A stretch of 15,402 nucleotides of DNA from Candidatus Micrarchaeota archaeon (GCA_027046625.1 JALTXX010000009.1:1-15402), one strand, 5' to 3'. Positions 1 to 14,747 are shown, counted from the stretch's first letter. Numbers and translations: made by a program. The notes: generated by a model not told the origin, from the sequence alone.

Positions 1-505
1 CGGTTCTTTACACACCCATCTACGAATCTCATGATGTAGTTGCTCTCACTCGGAGCGGACCACCCCATGTTAACATCTAAACCATCATAGAAGGTGTAAT
101 CTACTTTGTCATGAACCTTAGCTACATATTCGGAGCCACCTGATAGTGCAACAATTGTATCGCCCCTTTCTATGTGTCTATCAAGAAGCAGGTAATACAC
201 ACAAACATTTTTGGAACACTTTTTGTATGTTTTTAGTGGTTCTTCCGTTTTGTCGTCATTTTTTACCAAAAAGGATGCCTCTACGTTGTGGTATACACTT
301 TATACCAGTTGGGTGGAATGGGAATCACCTCCTTAATGATTACAGGTGTGCCTATAGAGGTGTTTAGAATCTTCTCATTTGATTGTAATGTGTTGGAAAG
401 AGTTGTATACATTAGTATTGCGGCAGCAACTACTAAAGAAACGATCAAAATCTCGCCTATCACATGATAAGAGGCCCTTAGCTGCCCCCTATAAATCGAG
501 AACAA
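1..505 (-). pseudogene. Frameshifted class III signal peptide (pilin-like) surface protein, running off the left edge
   Basis: ORF 505-281 has RA/SYHVIGEILIVSLVVAAAILMY, a prepilin-like hydrophobic helix, and stops at TAG 283-281. A second minus-strand frame, open from 299 to base 1, reads YHNVEASFLVKNDDKTEEPLKTYKKCSKNVCVYYLLLDRHIERGDTIVALSGG...GCVKN. This implies a frameshift at 284-299 (real or sequencing error). Confidence 0.6.
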
Positions 506-9093: not shown

Positions 9094-9177
9094 GCGGGGG
9101 TGCCCGAGCGGCCAAAGGGGCCGGATTCAGGGTCCGGTGGGTCAGTCCCTTCGTGGGTTCGAATCCCACCCCCCGCA
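9094..9177 (+). tRNA. tRNA-Leu(CAG)
   Basis: Acceptor GCGGGGG/CCCCCGC+A, anticodon arm CCGGA-TT CAG GG-TCCGG, long variable arm, TTCGAAT. Confidence 0.95.
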
Positions 9178-9182
9178 TAATG

Positions 9183-10055
9183 TTATGCATATCTAACAGT
9201 ATCACACACTCTCAATCCTTCTCCTACCAAACAAACCTTCATCTGTTCCACTTCTGTAGGTATTACCTTTAAGGGAACACCAACGAATGTGCATGAACCA
9301 CTCCCACCGGGTTCTACGTTAAACTTATCACACTTTAGCATAGGAAGAACTAGGTTCACCAATCCACTGCTAGTATCCACGGTAAAGCCATACTTTCTAT
9401 CTACTCTTGCGGATGCAAGCAACGTACCATCCCTTGTATCGTAAACCTGAAGATACATCCTCCAGAGCGGGAGGGGAGTATCCGGGGAGGTGTTTGTTAC
9501 AGTAAATCCTATGGGTATCTTTTCGCAGAAGAAGTTTATCTCGACGAGAGCATTTGAATCATTCCATCCACTTAACCATAATTCCCCCACATGCTCTCCA
9601 CCGACATTATCCGGCTGTAGGGGAGCCCATAGATCATACTCCACATCATCCCCCGTAATGTACTTCCATCCCCCATCTGGTTCTACAGATCCAGGCTGTT
9701 GATACATTCCTATATACGCTCTGCTCCATCCCTTTCTTGACATTAGACTCTTCAGAAAACCGTTTTGAGCGGTGTTTTTGGGTGTAGCAAGGAACATACC
9801 CCTCTCTTTACAATAATTAAACGCATCCACCCAGTTCATGGGGGTGGAAACTGCCACGTAATGGTGGAAGTATAGGTTACCTATGGCGTTTTTGGGTGGT
9901 TTCTCCCTGTAAGCATCAAACATTACTGTATATACCGTTCCTCCCTTGGGAGAACTTTCTAACATCTGAGAAACACCCATATAGAGCAACGCTCCAATAG
10001 CAACCACTATGGCAATCAACAGCACCGTTGCCACGATGGGTGAGATACCTCTCAT
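9183..10055 (-). CDS. Type IV pilin-like protein with C-type lectin domain, copy 1
   Basis: MRG/ISPIVATVLLIAIVV class III signal peptide. CTLD motifs: WVDAFNYC..G.FLA, AYIG, WKYITG, W...QPDN..GE, WND, FFCE. Confidence 0.88.
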   Translation of the reverse strand: MRGISPIVATVLLIAIVVAIGALLYMGVSQMLESSPKGGTVYTVMFDAYREKPPKNAIGNLYFHHYVAVSTPMNWVDAFNYCKERGMFLATPKNTAQNGFLKSLMSRKGWSRAYIGMYQQPGSVEPDGGWKYITGDDVEYDLWAPLQPDNVGGEHVGELWLSGWNDSNALVEINFFCEKIPIGFTVTNTSPDTPLPLWRMYLQVYDTRDGTLLASARVDRKYGFTVDTSSGLVNLVLPMLKCDKFNVEPGGSGSCTFVGVPLKVIPTEVEQMKVCLVGEGLRVCDTVRYA

Positions 10056-10110
10056 CCTAACGAAAAAAACGATGAATAAATACCTTTCGGTTGGGAATTG
10101 TTATGTATAA
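10027..10110 (-). repeat. Pilin 5'-end/promoter repeat, copy 1 (T7 tract)
   Basis: Near-identical to 11686-11771 and 13185-13268. Minus strand reads CCGAAAGG-TATTTATT-CATCG-T7-CGTTAGG-ATG. Confidence 0.95.
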
Positions 10111-10145
10111 TAACCCCTTATATATATCTCCTCCCATTTAATAGT

Positions 10146-10475
10146 ATGGAACCCCTTTCCACCATTAAGCGAATAATAGAGGAGGAAGCCTCCCGCCTCA
10201 ACATAAAAATAGAGAGGATTATCCTCTTTGGAAGCAGAGCAAAGGGAACAGAGAGAAAGGATAGCGATTATGACATTCTAGTAATTACAAAGGGACAGCT
10301 GCTGTGGCGGAAGAAGATGACATTCTATAGAAATGTTCATAGACGCCTTGTAGGGCTATTGAACAGTCCCGTAGACCTTCTAATAGTACCTTCGGAGTGG
10401 TTTTGGCAGCATGCTAAGATGCCAACCTCCTTTGAGGCCGAGGTGATGGAAACTGGCAAGGAGCTATCCGTGTAG
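10146..10475 (+). CDS. Minimal nucleotidyltransferase (MNT) of an MNT-HEPN pair
   Basis: ILFGSRAKG...DSDYDILV (GSx10DxD) and VDLL. ATG 10146 has a TTATATA box ~28 nt upstream. Confidence 0.92.
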   Translation: MEPLSTIKRIIEEEASRLNIKIERIILFGSRAKGTERKDSDYDILVITKGQLLWRKKMTFYRNVHRRLVGLLNSPVDLLIVPSEWFWQHAKMPTSFEAEVMETGKELSV

Positions 10476-10836
10476 ATGGTTGGAAAAAGCTAAGAGAGAC
10501 CTAAGAATGGCGGAACTTGCCCTTGAAGAGGATTTGTTTGATGAGTCTGCCTTCCATTCCCAACAAGCGGCGGAAAAATCTCTGAAAGCTATTGTGGCAC
10601 TTTTGGGCAAAAGACCACCAAAAACTCATGACATAGACGTTATACTTCAGTCATTAAGAGATTTGGGTGTTGAGTGTCCCTATGAAGATGTTTCAAGCTT
10701 GACGGCGTATGCAGTGGAATCCAGATATCCTGGGCCTCCAATAGTGGAGGAGGAAGCCAAAGAAGCCCTTAATATAGCAAAAAGGATATATAATTGGAGC
10801 AAGACTTTCTTCAAGAAGAGAAACATTGATTGTTGA
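10453..10836 (+). CDS. HEPN domain protein (partner of MNT)
   Basis: WLEKAKRDL, FHSQQAAEKSLKA, PPKTHDI and AVESRYP motifs. Start uncertain: TTG 10480 removes the conserved Trp, while CTG 10453 follows AGGTGA. Confidence 0.88.
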   Translation: MARSYPCRWLEKAKRDLRMAELALEEDLFDESAFHSQQAAEKSLKAIVALLGKRPPKTHDIDVILQSLRDLGVECPYEDVSSLTAYAVESRYPGPPIVEEEAKEALNIAKRIYNWSKTFFKKRNIDC

Positions 10837-10850
10837 ATGTTTAGGTTATG

Positions 10851-11714
10851 TCAAGTGGCGGTAGTATCACACACTCTCAATCCTTTCCCTATAAGGCATG
10901 CCCTTATCTCAGTGGGTTCGAATGTTATCATGAAGGGAATCGCCTGAAGCGTACAGCTTGTACTACCAGATGGGGGAACAGTGCCAATATCACATTTTAC
11001 AACCGGTATGGAGAGGGACTGTACAGTACCTCCTATGTTTACATCAACCCTGATTGGTTCTCCAATCTTTTTTGAGGTGATTGTGTCACCTGAGAATGTC
11101 TCCACTTTGAGTGTTGTATTTACAAGGTACAAATTCCTTGTAGAAGACTGGTTGGACACAGTAAACCCAACTCTAATCTTCTCACATATGAAGGGAAGAG
11201 GTACGGACCCATTTCTATCGTCCCACCCTGTGGGTGTTATGACGGCCACATCCTCCCCGTTAGCATCATCTGGCTTGCCACCCATCCAAAAATCACCCAC
11301 TATAGGATCTCCCGTAATGTACTTCCACCCACCATCTGGCTCTGAAGATTCAGGGGATTGATACACCCCTATGTATGCTGCACTCCACCCCTTCGAGCTA
11401 ACAATACTTTTCAGCACGCTGTTTTGGCCATCCGTTCTGGGAGTGGCAAGGAACATCCCCCTCTCTTTACAGTAATTAAATGCATCTACCCAGTTCATGG
11501 GGGTAGAAACAGGCAGGTAATAGTGTAGATAGTGTATATAAGCACCTTTGGGAGCATTTTGCCTATAAACATCTAATAATACCCCAATGGGAGAGGTGTT
11601 CTCCGTTGTAGTCTGCTCAGAAAGTCTTACCACACCCATGTATATGATTATCCCGAGTGCCAATACTGTGGCTATGAGAAGGAGTGTTGCCACGATGGGT
11701 GAGATACCTCTCAT
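10851..11714 (-). CDS. Type IV pilin-like protein with C-type lectin domain, copy 2
   Basis: MRGISPIVATLLLIA signal; CTLD with KPDD..GE, WDD and FICE; four conserved C-terminal Cys. Confidence 0.88.
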   Translation of the reverse strand: MRGISPIVATLLLIATVLALGIIIYMGVVRLSEQTTTENTSPIGVLLDVYRQNAPKGAYIHYLHYYLPVSTPMNWVDAFNYCKERGMFLATPRTDGQNSVLKSIVSSKGWSAAYIGVYQSPESSEPDGGWKYITGDPIVGDFWMGGKPDDANGEDVAVITPTGWDDRNGSVPLPFICEKIRVGFTVSNQSSTRNLYLVNTTLKVETFSGDTITSKKIGEPIRVDVNIGGTVQSLSIPVVKCDIGTVPPSGSTSCTLQAIPFMITFEPTEIRACLIGKGLRVCDTTAT

Positions 11715-11778
11715 CCTAACGAAAAAAAAACGATGAATAAATACCTTTCGGTTGGGAATTGTTATGTATAAGAGGTGT
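11686..11778 (-). repeat. Pilin 5'-end/promoter repeat, copy 2 (T9 tract)
   Basis: Same repeat with A9 at 11722-11730. Shares an extra plus-strand GAGGTGT with copy 3. Confidence 0.95.
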
Positions 11779-11782
11779 GGGT

Positions 11783-12076
11783 ATGAAGGAAAGATGGGAA
11801 GTAATATTTACAGAGGATGCGGTGAAGGATATCAAGCGATTGGTAAAGGGTTTGGGTAAGGAAAGGACGGAAAAGGTTCTAAAGAAGCTTGTAGCACTCC
11901 TTGAAAACTTGGATGATTATATTTCGCGGGTAAAGCCTGTGAGAGGTTTAGAAGGTGTGTACAGGGTTCGTATTGGAACCCTTAGGGTAGCTTTTGTGTT
12001 GGAGAGGGAAGAGAGAAAGGTGAAAGTAATTGCAATAGGGTTTAGAGAATCCTTCTATGAGAAGCTTATGCGTTGA
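11783..12076 (+). CDS. relE: RelE/ParE-family toxin
   Basis: WEVIFTEDAVKDIKRL...YRVRIGTLRVAF...VIAIGFRESFY. GAGGTG Shine-Dalgarno-like site at 11772 before ATG 11783. Confidence 0.88.
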   Translation: MKERWEVIFTEDAVKDIKRLVKGLGKERTEKVLKKLVALLENLDDYISRVKPVRGLEGVYRVRIGTLRVAFVLEREERKVKVIAIGFRESFYEKLMR

Positions 12077-12278
12077 GCTCTTTTAATACTTCGTCAAAGG
12101 TGTATGTTTTTACCTCCCCCTTACTCAGCCTATCTACCCTCCTTTTTAGCTCCTCTACCTCCTCTTCTGTCAGTTCATCCTCCATGAGGGATATGATGTA
12201 GTCTATCTTTTCCTCCAGTGCAGAAACCCTCCTTCTCAGCTCTTCTATTTCTCTTTGAACAGATACACCTACAGGCAT
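12066..12278 (-). CDS. Putative archaeal RelB-like antitoxin
   Basis: 70 aa, N-terminal coiled coil, then EDELTEEEVEEL...TYTFDEVLKEL. Has its own TTTTTA box 30 nt upstream and is adjacent to relE. Confidence 0.7.
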   Translation of the reverse strand: MPVGVSVQREIEELRRRVSALEEKIDYIISLMEDELTEEEVEELKRRVDRLSKGEVKTYTFDEVLKELNA

Positions 12279-12322
12279 ATAGCACTATATACAAAAAGTA
12301 TGTAAAAAGATTTTAGTGCGTG

Positions 12323-13213
12323 CTAAGTGGTAGTATCACATATCTTGCCTCCTATATTTCCTCCTGTCAAACAAACCCTTAGGTTTTCAACTCCTGGCTC
12401 ATAGCTAACATTAAACGGAATGGCCCACACATCACATGTGGCGGTTTCTTTCGGAGGAATATGGAACGTAGAACACCTCAATGCCCCTATATCCAGGGAG
12501 TAAACAGTGCCTCCGCTGTCTACTTTGATGATATATCTTTTATCTACCCTTACAGATGTTGCAGCCTCCGGCAAGCCTCCCGGATATATTTGCAGAGTTG
12601 CATTAGAAAAGTGAAGGAACTTGGAGGAATGAAGATTCGAGATGAGGAATCCTATCCTAATACCTTCACATATAAAGGGACGATTGGTCTCCCCGTTTAC
12701 ATCATGCAACCCCTCCGTCATGGGAGAAACCCCCACGGCACCCACATTCTCCTCTGGTTGAGAGATCTCTGGCTGCCCTGCTGCCCATAGGATGTCGGGT
12801 ACCACTTCTCCTGTTAGATAATACCATTTAGCCTCCTCCTTAGGAATACCCGCCTTTCGATAGATACCTATGTGTGCTAGCGTCCACCCCTTCTCCTTTA
12901 GAATGCCTATTAGCCTGTTTAGCTGATCCCTATTTCTTGGCATGGCAAGGAACATCCCCCTTTCCTTACAATAATTAAATGCATCTACCCATCTTATATG
13001 TGTGGAAACGGGCACGTAGTAGTGTGAAAAGAACTGGTACGACCCAGGCGGCTCCTTCTTTAGGTATACATCAAGGGTGAGAGGATGTGAACTGCTGCCT
13101 AGAGTGGAGGTACCCTCCACCATCTGAGAAACACCCATATAGAGCAACGCCCCAATAGCAACCACTATGGCAATCAGCAGCACCGTTGCCACGATGGGCG
13201 AGATACCTCTCAT
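12323..13213 (-). CDS. Type IV pilin-like protein with C-type lectin domain, copy 3
   Basis: First 31 aa identical to copy 1. CTLD with WAAGQPE, LHD and FICE; four conserved C-terminal Cys. Confidence 0.88.
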   Translation of the reverse strand: MRGISPIVATVLLIAIVVAIGALLYMGVSQMVEGTSTLGSSSHPLTLDVYLKKEPPGSYQFFSHYYVPVSTHIRWVDAFNYCKERGMFLAMPRNRDQLNRLIGILKEKGWTLAHIGIYRKAGIPKEEAKWYYLTGEVVPDILWAAGQPEISQPEENVGAVGVSPMTEGLHDVNGETNRPFICEGIRIGFLISNLHSSKFLHFSNATLQIYPGGLPEAATSVRVDKRYIIKVDSGGTVYSLDIGALRCSTFHIPPKETATCDVWAIPFNVSYEPGVENLRVCLTGGNIGGKICDTTT

Positions 13214-13275
13214 CCTAACGAAAAAAACGATGAATAAATACCTTTCGGTTGGGAATTGTTATGTATAAGAGGTGT
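13185..13275 (-). repeat. Pilin 5'-end/promoter repeat, copy 3 (T7 tract)
   Basis: Same repeat with A7 at 13221-13227. Confidence 0.95.
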
Positions 13276-13277
13276 TA

Positions 13278-14747
13278 TTATTGCCTGTGCTCAAAATAAA
13301 TGTGTTTGGAGCCTACGATATTCATTCTTTTGCCTTCAGACAGCGATATATCCTTAAAGAATACTAGTTTGGGGATGGATGCAGCCGCAGGCTTTGCACC
13401 CGCTGGCGGATCTATCTCATGATGGACTTCTATTCCGTGTTTGTTTAACGTTCTAATGGTATGGTGCAAAATATCCATCACACCATAGGATTTGTTTGGT
13501 ACAAAGAATAGCTTCCCATCTTTCTCATACCCAATGAGGGAAACCCTCCCCTTTACATTGTGATCTGCATCTACAGCAGCTACCATGAGTACCGGCCCTA
13601 ATATTGCGGCATCCAGATAAAGTCCCCCGTCCTTGCTAGACAGACAAGAGTCTAATACATTGGTGTAATGTACAATATCATAAACATCCTCTGATATTTT
13701 GAGCTTTGGAGGATTTACCTTCATCTTTGTAAGCCTTCTTAATATTTCAATGGTGTTCTCTAGACCAAGCTTCTGAGCGATACCATCATTCTCAAGAGCT
13801 TTCAGATCCCCCTCTGTTACCTTGGCAGTTTCCGGTCTTTCTACAAGCTTCCAGTACAGCCTCCTTATGCGTTTCAAAAATCTTCTCTCTTTTGTGTTTG
13901 AACCCTTCTTTCTGAATAGATTTTCCATCTTTGTAGCCTCTTTTAGCCTTTCTACATCTTTGTAATACGTCTTTGGAAGGGCGTCAAGATTTTTCCTGTT
14001 GATCTCTCTTATCTTTTTCAGTATTTCATCTCCTACCCCATAGGGTTGGAACTTAATCCTGAACAAGTCTACTGGATCCTTGTAAGTTTCTACTATTTTG
14101 GAAAGGCGAGGATTTAGTACATAGTATTCCAACATCGAGATAGAGTGTGGCACCTTTTTCCAATTTATAAGCTCCTCAGGAACATACACACTATGCTTCA
14201 AGATCCTATCCTTGACTTTCTCAACGAAGTCTAACACATCTCTTGCATTCTTTCCTACCTCCTCCAGATCTACCCCATACATTTCTGCCGATCTAAGCAT
14301 GTCCACACGTTTCAATAGGCTTTTATAGCTTCTTTTACCAAGCTTTATACCCTCTTCCTCAAGGATTTTACTGGTTTTTAGGAAAGTGTTCAACAAACCA
14401 GGCTCTCTAATTATCCTCTGGGTGAGGGCTTTATTGACAAGGTATCCCCTAGAGATATGCTTTAGGAGCGGATGTGCCGAAAAGATATTCATATACTTGC
14501 TTATTAGCTCAGCATCCCCAAAGTTTATTACCCTAGAAAACACCTCCACAGGATGATACCCCTTGGTTTTCTTAGGATCCACGTGCCATTTTACAATTTT
14601 TGTCCAAAATTCAGGCTCCTTCCCCATCCCTTTATCATGAAGCTGCTTCACAACCTCAATTTTGCAATCATCAGGCACCTTTCTTACCAGCCTGTCCACC
14701 TTCTTTATATCTCTCTCAAAAGAAGGGACCTCACATATTCTCCCCAT
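13278..14747 (-). CDS. Hypothetical protein (Lys-rich; C-terminal alpha/beta region with DSCLS motif)
   Basis: 489-aa ORF with GGAAAG-TTTTTATT 29 nt upstream of the ATG. No recognised family. Confidence 0.8.
   Translation of the reverse strand: MGRICEVPSFERDIKKVDRLVRKVPDDCKIEVVKQLHDKGMGKEPEFWTKIVKWHVDPKKTKGYHPVEVFSRVINFGDAELISKYMNIFSAHPLLKHISRGYLVNKALTQRIIREPGLLNTFLKTSKILEEEGIKLGKRSYKSLLKRVDMLRSAEMYGVDLEEVGKNARDVLDFVEKVKDRILKHSVYVPEELINWKKVPHSISMLEYYVLNPRLSKIVETYKDPVDLFRIKFQPYGVGDEILKKIREINRKNLDALPKTYYKDVERLKEATKMENLFRKKGSNTKERRFLKRIRRLYWKLVERPETAKVTEGDLKALENDGIAQKLGLENTIEILRRLTKMKVNPPKLKISEDVYDIVHYTNVLDSCLSSKDGGLYLDAAILGPVLMVAAVDADHNVKGRVSLIGYEKDGKLFFVPNKSYGVMDILHHTIRTLNKHGIEVHHEIDPPAGAKPAAASIPKLVFFKDISLSEGKRMNIVGSKHIYFEHRQ

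Follow-up and report, generated by a model that had tools for sequence, protein, structure and literature searches.

What do small archaea that depend on a host use to recognise and hold it? For DPANN-type archaea, the candidate adhesins are mostly 'hypothetical surface proteins'. We address it through a stretch of 15,402 bp from a Candidatus Micrarchaeota archaeon, called the window below, which is the entire contig C9 of one genome assembly (G000; 652,019 bp in 18 contigs, 94.2% complete, 0.5% contamination) and comes from the public data of a hydrothermal vent metagenome. A sequence-only reading had described positions 9183..13275 as an array of three pilins with C-type lectin domains (CTLDs), forming a set of glycan-reading pilus adhesins. 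The three genes are real, and the array is only part of a family with at least 13 copies in the genome. Besides the wider family, that reading had overlooked the common promoter with its simple-sequence tract and the toxin-antitoxin pairs lying between the genes. We think it rather probable that this is a family of lectin-headed, pilin-like adhesins of a host-dependent DPANN-type archaeon, and that it is probably phase-variable. The tiny genome (652 kb) fits a host-dependent lifestyle.

C-type lectin domains on class III signal proteins

Three open reading frames (ORFs) of about 290 amino acids, all on the minus strand and all opening with the prepilin-like signal MRG/ISPIVAT, align end to end with 44-50% identity. 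Invariant among them are MRGISPIVAT, WVDAFNYCKERGMFLA, an F.CE motif, a GF...N strand and six cysteines, of which the CTLD holds two and the C-terminal part four. This likeness is far beyond chance, and the alignment bears out the near-invariant scaffold and the four C-terminal cysteines that had been described.

9183..10055, minus strand: lectin-pilin copy 1, ORF of 290 aa; Lectin_C 36.5 bits, Pilin_N 17.5 bits; site residues QPD, E and WND
10851..11714, minus strand: lectin-pilin copy 2, ORF of 287 aa; Lectin_C 43.3 bits; site residues KPD, E and WDD; the copy behind the AlphaFold2 models and fold matches
11619-11714, minus strand: signal and helix of copy 2, residues 1-32 (AlphaFold2 model)
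11175-11525, minus strand: CTLD of copy 2, residues 64-180 (AlphaFold2 model)
10854-11174, minus strand: four-cysteine beta-sandwich of copy 2, residues 181-287 (AlphaFold2 model)
12323..13213, minus strand: lectin-pilin copy 3, ORF of 296 aa; Lectin_C 17.5 bits; site residues QPE, E and LHD, with a longer loop (family alignment)

The Pfam profile Lectin_C (PF00059; gathering cut-off 22.6 bits) aligns to residues 72-179, above the cut-off in copies 1 and 2 and below it in copy 3; genome-wide, 10 of the 12 complete family copies reach it. Using a profile of these 12 copies against PDB sequences, we found 120 distinct matches at E ≤ 0.01, the best to collectin-11 (E 2.6e-12), whose EPN, loop Glu and WND stand opposite variable positions of the family. 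The AlphaFold2 model of the 287-aa copy (pLDDT 85.4, pTM 0.78) comprises a helix (residues 6-32), a low-confidence linker, a strand (45-51), the CTLD (64-180) and a beta domain (182-284). If the 45-51 strand packs against the C-terminal sandwich, the CTLD would be genuinely inserted, as the sequence-only reading had it. In Foldseek searches of the PDB, its best matches were CL-K1, DC-SIGN, DC-SIGNR and other carbohydrate-recognition domains (CRDs), with E-values down to 1.3e-9. Against such CRDs, including that of a scavenger receptor, the target TM-score was 0.80-0.89 (0.86-0.89 for DC-SIGN) and the root-mean-square deviation 1.6-2.3, over about 130 columns. C82 and C177, the predicted outer disulfide pair joining helix 1 to strand 5, are invariant in all 12 copies, as are P148 and D166, and E154 is present in 10. 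The fold anticipated by the sequence-only reading is thus matched by the model and its DC-SIGN-type neighbours, and we conclude with high confidence that the window proteins are real CTLDs carried on class III signal proteins.

The family extends well beyond the window. Twelve complete copies of 283-297 aa are spread over seven contigs and make up about 1.6% of the genome, and a thirteenth, truncated by the end of contig C1, has 26 residues. Because several copies lie at contig ends, the true number may exceed 13. A word-based protein search returned 11 proteins, all of 287-297 aa, which are the family itself.

A recent animal origin of the CTLD is unsupported, as single prokaryotic CTLD proteins carry the family's loop motif. 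This motif, Q.PG..EPDGGW.Y.TG, resembles the CTLD repeats of uncultured prokaryotes; its carriers include one 'lectin-like protein' each from a Planctomycetota and a Hodarchaeales metagenome-assembled genome and the repeat protein P0074. Animal multi-CTLD receptors head the CTLD-only matches in a library of 1.84 billion representative proteins because their scores sum over many domains.

Possible filament entry and ligand binding, and variation between copies

The N-termini have the layout of a class III signal, with a short basic leader, a glycine and then about 22 uncharged hydrophobic residues. The signal reads MRG/ISPIVAT in 11 of the 12 copies and MRS/ASPIVAT in one, and residues 1-25 are identical in nine. 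A six-frame scan of the genome with a strict class III pattern yielded 13 proteins, namely the 12 family members and a 145-aa protein (C4:12522), which passes the Pfam profile Pilin_N (PF07790; cut-off 25.2 bits) at 25.4 bits and whose helix the family helix closely resembles. The genome also holds the prepilin peptidase and pilus ATPase genes on which a pilus function would depend: two Peptidase_A24 genes, seven T2SSE ATPases over the cut-off and T2SSF platform genes at five loci. In the mechanism we propose, the three-residue leader MRG would be removed by one of the two A24 class III signal peptidases, and the near-invariant hydrophobic helix ISPIVATVLLIAIVVAIGALLY would allow entry into a type IV filament (T4F) assembled by the products of one of the five ATPase/platform loci. 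Most likely, the 145-aa pilin would be the main subunit of that filament, as the only other protein in the genome with such an N-terminus.

The C-terminal domain, modelled alone, reached a pLDDT of 88.1 and had no Foldseek match at E ≤ 0.001. Using VIA-align, FlaG/FlaF (Z 7.9 and 6.6) were among the best rows, together with the archaellins of Methanospirillum, Halobacterium, Sulfolobus, Methanocaldococcus and Aeropyrum and the Pyrobaculum pilus (Z 5.1-6.7; the M. hungatei archaellin and the P. calidifontis pilus each at 6.7). These archaeal filament rows are interspersed with glycosidase Ig domains. The modelled likeness to archaeal filament subunits is a hint.

Several results weigh against a place in a filament. 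Pilin_N scores are 12.3-17.5 bits for the window proteins, below the cut-off in all three, and at most 22 bits, again below it, for family members searched from DNA, and the match covers only the first 30-42 of the 78 profile positions; the profile search proposed for these genes therefore succeeded for the lectin domain in two of three copies and failed for the pilin N-terminus. No copy adjoins pilus machinery. The mature protein has about 285 aa, a large size for a filament subunit, and every Z-score of the C-terminal domain lies below 8, a level that the tool calls common.

The weak Pilin_N match, the distance from ATPase and platform genes and the large head would equally suit surface lectins that use the class III signal peptide, or a simple anchor, outside any filament, either in the membrane or in a short surface assembly. 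Such proteins would be comparable to the sugar-binding proteins of the Sulfolobus bindosome. A T4F survey (PMC13705601) lends this alternative some weight, since it counts the bindosome, as well as class III signal proteins that carry a galactose-binding domain, among T4F-related systems. However, a plain anchor would not need a helix so nearly invariant, this helix is close to that of the single short Pilin_N protein, and the resemblance of the C-terminal domain to archaellin and pilin sandwiches also speaks for a filament. We consider the non-filament alternative unlikely. For the favoured family of pilin-like adhesins, we have moderate confidence, as judged from sequence, both in pilus incorporation and in sugar binding. 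The original proposal is upheld in part: a class III signal-type N-terminus is combined with a real CTLD whose ligand-site loops differ between copies, and the tiny genome fits dependence on a host.

The canonical Ca2+ site 2 of a CTLD consists of five ligands: E/Q-P-N/D, a loop E, and the N and D of WND. Across the 12 copies, the first ligand is Q in six, E in four and K in two; the third is D in five, S in three, T in two, E in one and N in one. The loop Glu is retained in 10 and is Q in two, and the Asn of WND is N in three, D in three, H in five and V in one, while the Pro and the final Asp are invariant. For the window copies this table confirms the motifs quoted previously, QPDN/WND, KPDD/WDD and QPE(I)/LHD. 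Three relatives, P0040, the copy on contig C4 of the same-genus genome G004, and G015 from the same order, retain EPN with WND or WDD, so the canonical site is probably ancestral. The head, a canonical CTLD followed by an Ig-like four-cysteine sandwich, would stand outside the cell, and its variable long-loop site would bind a host-surface ligand, most plausibly a glycan via Ca2+.

The state of the site tells against this. All five ligands occur in one copy of 12 (9183..10055: QPD, E, WND) and the set is partial in the other 11, which speaks against a simple equation of QPD with galactose binding. Lys takes the place of the first ligand in two copies and His that of the WND Asn in five. The inner disulfide pair (strand 3 to the loop after strand 4) is absent in all 12, its reported absence being confirmed by alignment to collectin-11. 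Some accepted CTLDs also lack this pair.

Heads that recognise proteins or other non-sugar ligands independently of Ca2+, as is common among CTLDs, would account for these features, with the motif differences (KPD, EPT, EPS, QPS, LHD, WVD; at least one canonical ligand missing in 11 of 12 copies) marking lost lectin activity; the missing inner disulfide and the spread of variation over the whole exposed surface, rather than the site alone, fit as well. Yet the cis-Pro position and D166 are retained, the loop Glu is kept in 10 of 12 copies, relatives have EPN with WND or WDD, and seawater is a source of Ca2+. We rate non-sugar binding as somewhat unlikely.

Divergence between copies is uneven along the protein. 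The proportion of non-synonymous sites that differ (pN) is 0.14 in the helix (codons 1-28), 0.27 in the N-terminal half of the CTLD, 0.41 in its long-loop region, 0.47 in the C-terminal domain and 0.51 in the linker. The helix is thus the most constrained region, and the C-terminal domain and linker vary more than the CTLD loop region, which also speaks against equating QPD simply with galactose. Synonymous sites are saturated (pS, the corresponding proportion, 0.74-0.81) except in codons 1-28 (pS 0.50). As a further point against our reading, the ratio of non-synonymous to synonymous substitution rates (dN/dS) exceeds 1 in no region of five paralogue pairs (0.04-0.42; most pairs saturated). 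One pair, C9:11714 and C16:58268, is a mosaic: the CTLDs differ little (dS 0.12-0.20, amino acid identity 97%), codons 29-63 differ most (dS 1.13, identity 54%) and the C-terminal domains lie in between (dS 0.46, identity 69%), indicating that segments have been exchanged between copies. The copies, differing in their ligand-site residues and over the whole exposed surface and exchanging segments by recombination, may together form a repertoire of specificities.

A diversity-generating retroelement (DGR) acting on a C-type lectin fold, as in some nanoarchaea, could in principle produce such variation, and there is, to go by titles, a literature on CLec-fold DGR targets in archaea. We found no RVT_1 match at E ≤ 1 in the 94% complete genome. 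Moreover, the domain is of the canonical Lectin_C type, and the variation extends over the whole protein between old paralogues with saturated synonymous sites. With the reverse transcriptase missing (template and variable repeats not having been searched), we reject a DGR origin as extremely improbable.

Repeat tracts at the 5' ends of the genes

All 13 copies are preceded by a near-identical promoter element of 55-57 nt, given here for the window copies.

10056..10110, minus strand: promoter element of copy 1, T7 tract at 10063-10069
11715..11771, minus strand: promoter element of copy 2, T9 tract at 11722-11730
13214..13268, minus strand: promoter element of copy 3, T7 tract at 13221-13227

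The element consists of TTATACATAAC, a patch of 11-12 nt (N11 in copy 1), a sequence resembling a B recognition element (BRE) and TATA box, GAAAGGTATTTATT, then CATCG, the T-tract and CGTTAGG, with the ATG following directly. Its 19-nt core, with two mismatches allowed, has 13 occurrences in the genome, each at a family gene and none elsewhere. As the promoters are near-identical while the synonymous sites of the genes are saturated, this non-coding element must be under strong constraint or be homogenised. The main variable in the otherwise fixed element is the length of the T-tract, which is T9 in five copies, T8 in five, T7 in two (window copies 1 and 3) and T6 in one. In the whole 652 kb there are 11 A/T runs of at least 8 nt, and 10 of them are family T-tracts. 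The longest dinucleotide repeat in the genome is an (AC)13 microsatellite at the very end of contig C15 (12849-12874). A 20-nt word from the promoter gave 12 matches in JGI metagenome contigs, none with family sequence after it, and all were judged to be chance.

Promoter geometry was surveyed at 343 other genes with well-defined ATG starts. TATA-like hexamers began at -31 in 13 genes, -30 in 18, -29 in 19, -28 in 13, -27 in six, -26 in four and -25 in one, and this peak at -31 to -28 from the ATG indicates that transcripts in G000 are mostly leaderless. Counted on the sequences, the family TATTTA begins at -29 with T9, -28 with T8, -27 with T7 and -25 in the T6 copy, which has a GTG start. 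Each copy would accordingly be expected to be transcribed as a leaderless mRNA from its own conserved BRE/TATA promoter. Tract length is predicted to carry the TATA box over the downstream limit of the working range, and we infer from this that it may decide whether the transcript starts at or before the AUG.

A different repeat marks the same gene end in the sister genome G004, where the family has a longer signal-peptide leader containing a (GA)n tract. AGAGAGAGAGA is found at five G004 loci, four of which are family 5' ends (C2, C4, C70 and C85); the fifth family copy, C48, has a shorter GA tract. In C2 and C48 the upstream start is in frame; in C4, C70 and C85 it is displaced from the frame by an offset that amounts to one GA unit. 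The leader MTGP..RE. is common to C48 and C85, which shows that it is coding. Three proteins make up the 90% cluster of the C4 gene. Two of these, P0022 (JGI) and P0163 (NCBI), are 284 aa long and start at the helix, and the third, P0164 (ENA, 307 aa), has an identical mature sequence preceded by the in-frame leader MVAGKAEREREIVNNFSRG. That leader corresponds to the upstream peptide that is out of frame in G004:C4, here read in one frame through the GA tract, so that, at the protein level only, P0164 and G004:C4 look like one gene with different tract lengths in different assemblies.

Slippage in these 5' tracts, T6-T9 between TATA and start in G000 and (GA)n in the sister leader, would probably switch copies on and off at random, and cells with different adhesins would then always be present in the population. 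Three observations stand in the way of this proposal. First, the four TATA-to-ATG spacings of the family all lie within the range of other genes, -27 and -25 being rare. Second, no variation in tract length within the G000 population is demonstrable, given that Logan contigs break at the repeated promoter and paralogues cross-map; a 1-nt deletion at 11722 in the T9 tract, at a depth of 59 of 338 in one Logan contig, may stem from a T8 paralogue and counts neither for nor against switching. Third, the in-frame and out-of-frame calls in G004 hinge on the true start, and a second candidate start of C2 is out of frame.

The first two of these suit a simpler view, in which the T-tract is a promoter-proximal A/T element or an insulating terminator, its length is neutral and all copies are co-expressed. 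Oligo-T is an archaeal terminator. This account has to explain why runs of at least 8 nt are otherwise nearly absent (one other in 652 kb), why tract length is the main variable of a fixed element and why the sister lineage carries a different repeat at the same gene end, with the frame differing between assemblies of one gene. A neutral tract is a serious contender, although we put it at somewhat below an even chance. Phase variation in G000 is itself near the balance point or a little under it, and it is somewhat better supported in the sister lineage.

Taken to its full extent, the phase-variable reading would make this the first multi-locus contingency-gene system in an archaeon, with 13 lectin-headed pilins switching independently by repeat slippage, a proposal that we offer tentatively. 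Equally tentative is the suggestion that the G000 switch is of an undescribed kind, in which poly-T sets the distance from TATA to the start of a leaderless mRNA and a single base decides whether the AUG is included, as is the idea that (GA)n in the signal-peptide leader of the sister species could reach the same end. If the tracts do work as switches, phase variation, until now a topic of bacteriology, would reach archaea and gain a switch geometry specific to leaderless archaeal genes, and an obligate symbiont with a 0.65-Mb genome could hedge its bets on host surface glycans.

Genomic setting and known systems

Between and beside the three window copies lie the following genes.

9094..9177, plus strand: tRNA-Leu(CAG) (ARAGORN), ending 6 nt from the 3' end of copy 1
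10098..10836, plus strand: nucleotidyltransferase (10098-10475; Polbeta 49.2 bits) and HEPN (10480-10836; 97.6 bits), a toxin-antitoxin-type pair
11759-12076, plus strand: ParE-like toxin (ParE_toxin 36.2 bits), between copies 2 and 3
12066-12278, minus strand: Unstab_antitox-like ORF (Unstab_antitox 26.6 bits), between copies 2 and 3

The nucleotidyltransferase/HEPN pair is divergent from copy 1, and three or four further family copies have one of this kind beside them. Such pairs flank copies on C9, C16 and C2, and also at C7:55722 by virtue of the upstream DNA that this copy has in common with C16:58268. The ParE-like and Unstab_antitox-like genes are convergent, with 3' ends overlapping by 11 nt, which is atypical for a toxin-antitoxin pair. 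Immediately upstream of copy 3 is a 489-aa ORF (13278-14747, minus strand), for which a Pfam scan found no family above noise. At the other end of the window, positions 48-463 (minus strand) encode the N-terminal part of a second pilin-like family, with a frame change near 272 and the gene running off the contig start. Its homologue is a 409-aa protein at G000:C11:7765-8994, and a C-terminal homologue lies on contig C5 (4177-5085); as the two parts are split between them, C9 and C5 may be neighbours.

Elsewhere in G000, family copies are dispersed among housekeeping genes (RuBisCO, CysRS, RtcB, Kae1, CDC48 and adenosine kinase). Two thioredoxin/DsbA-like genes (C4:32525-34067) lie directly downstream of the copy at C4:31507 and may be relevant to disulfide formation in these six-cysteine proteins. 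A 26-residue relic of the family C-terminus (C16:57074-57151, minus strand) is found about 250 nt downstream of the copy C16:57405-58268, with a tRNA-Ser-like sequence nearby. A further multi-copy surface family combines a hydrophobic N-terminus (MNTIISPLL...) with DUF2341 (C11:37553-38902, with paralogues on C3, C16, C15, C10 and C14), and a lectin-pilin copy lies at a distance of 1.1 kb from one of its members.

Of 41 related genomes, only G000 and the same-genus G004 (five matches, 112-195 bits) were found to have the full architecture; beyond these two, full-length relatives were limited to a few metagenome proteins. A scan of genome contigs gave five loci that match only the first 24-44 residues, that is, the shared pilin helix, and these were set aside. 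Lectin_C occurs in four of 215 genomes of a phylum sample (G000, G004, G011 and G015), all of one order, and in none of 14 control genomes. The best 150 rows of the 1.84-billion library include eight full-length proteins, four from G000 together with P0022, P0037, P0040 and P0045, the remaining rows being CTLD-only matches. In G015, CTLDs lie within a 1,027-aa protein (L064, on contig C49), a giant surface protein that combines a hydrophobic N-terminus and a lectin/LamG-like tail with two or more CTLDs bearing EPN/WND. G004 has a fused form of at least 560 aa (L063, C14:6543-8222) ending at the contig end, in the order class III N-terminus, Gly-rich and Ig-like part, CTLD, four-cysteine domain and the start of a DUF2341-like domain.

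In our literature searches, we found no description of such a lectin-pilin family for archaea, DPANN or Nanoarchaeota, and the word 'lectin' is absent from the main text and six of the seven supplementary files of the 2026 archaeal T4F survey (PMC13705601). Accessible parts of other reports describe a cultured nanoarchaeal system in which the host and symbiont surfaces stain with different lectins, and a nanohaloarchaeon whose lectin-domain proteins were proposed to act in host recognition. With its well-understood ligand-binding fold, its pilus-type N-terminus and about 1.6% of a minimal genome devoted to it, the lectin-pilin family is a concrete candidate for such a role, and it shows canonical Lectin_C domains in use by prokaryotic symbionts.

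As far as the accessible literature shows, nanoarchaeal CLec-fold DGR proteins offer one parallel, in that small symbiotic archaea there too diversify a surface protein with a CLec-type ligand-binding fold. The present family differs in lacking a reverse transcriptase, in having the canonical Lectin_C rather than the Mtd/FGE-like form and in storing its diversity as paralogues. With collectin-11 (CL-K1), DC-SIGN and DC-SIGNR the family has in common sequence homology, fold, the xPx ... E ... (W)xD framework and the outer disulfide; unlike collectin-11 and DC-SIGN, it has no inner disulfide, a full ligand set in one copy of 12 and no neck or collagen region.

Bacterial phase-variable adhesins include the Opa proteins of Neisseria, with a repeat in the region coding for the signal peptide, and those of Mycoplasma and Haemophilus with tracts in the promoter spacer. 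Like them, the family is a multi-copy surface family with 5' repeats, and in the sister species the repeat in the signal-peptide leader shifts the frame. In contrast, the host of these genes is an archaeon, and the G000 tract, placed between TATA and the start of a leaderless gene, has no known bacterial counterpart. Bacterial phase variation is the subject of general reviews (PMC11868660 and PMC2831843, in their accessible parts). Searches on archaeal phase variation returned, in the parts available, studies of bacteria and a 2010 survey of homopolymer tracts in genomes, 18 of them archaeal; a 2025 review of phase variation, to judge from its accessible part, treats archaea as future work.

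In the modular pilins of Streptococcus, as in the family described here, a class III signal and a pilin helix carry a ligand-binding module of a general-purpose family, which is presented by the filament. One entry of relevance is IPR001304, which we take to be the C-type lectin-like entry. According to the accessible parts of PMC8179133 and PMC9934059, such modular type IV pilins, which are established in bacteria, include S. sanguinis PilC, with a concanavalin-A-like lectin module, and PilB, with a von Willebrand factor A module, and Dataset S1 of PMC8179133 lists the architecture IPR012902-IPR001304 in three bacterial proteins. The archaeal family differs from these in its signal, which is of the archaeal class III type, Pilin_N-like and not IPR012902; in the position of the CTLD, between the helix region and the beta-sandwich instead of at the C-terminal end; and in comprising 13 paralogues, known from sequence alone, with a common promoter and simple-sequence tracts. 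The lectin-pilin architecture adds a new, archaeal variant to the modular lectin pilins. Given the size of the family in a minimal genome, the promoter that its copies share and the repeat tracts found in two species, we regard the family as an unusually good candidate for a host-recognition repertoire that switches stochastically.

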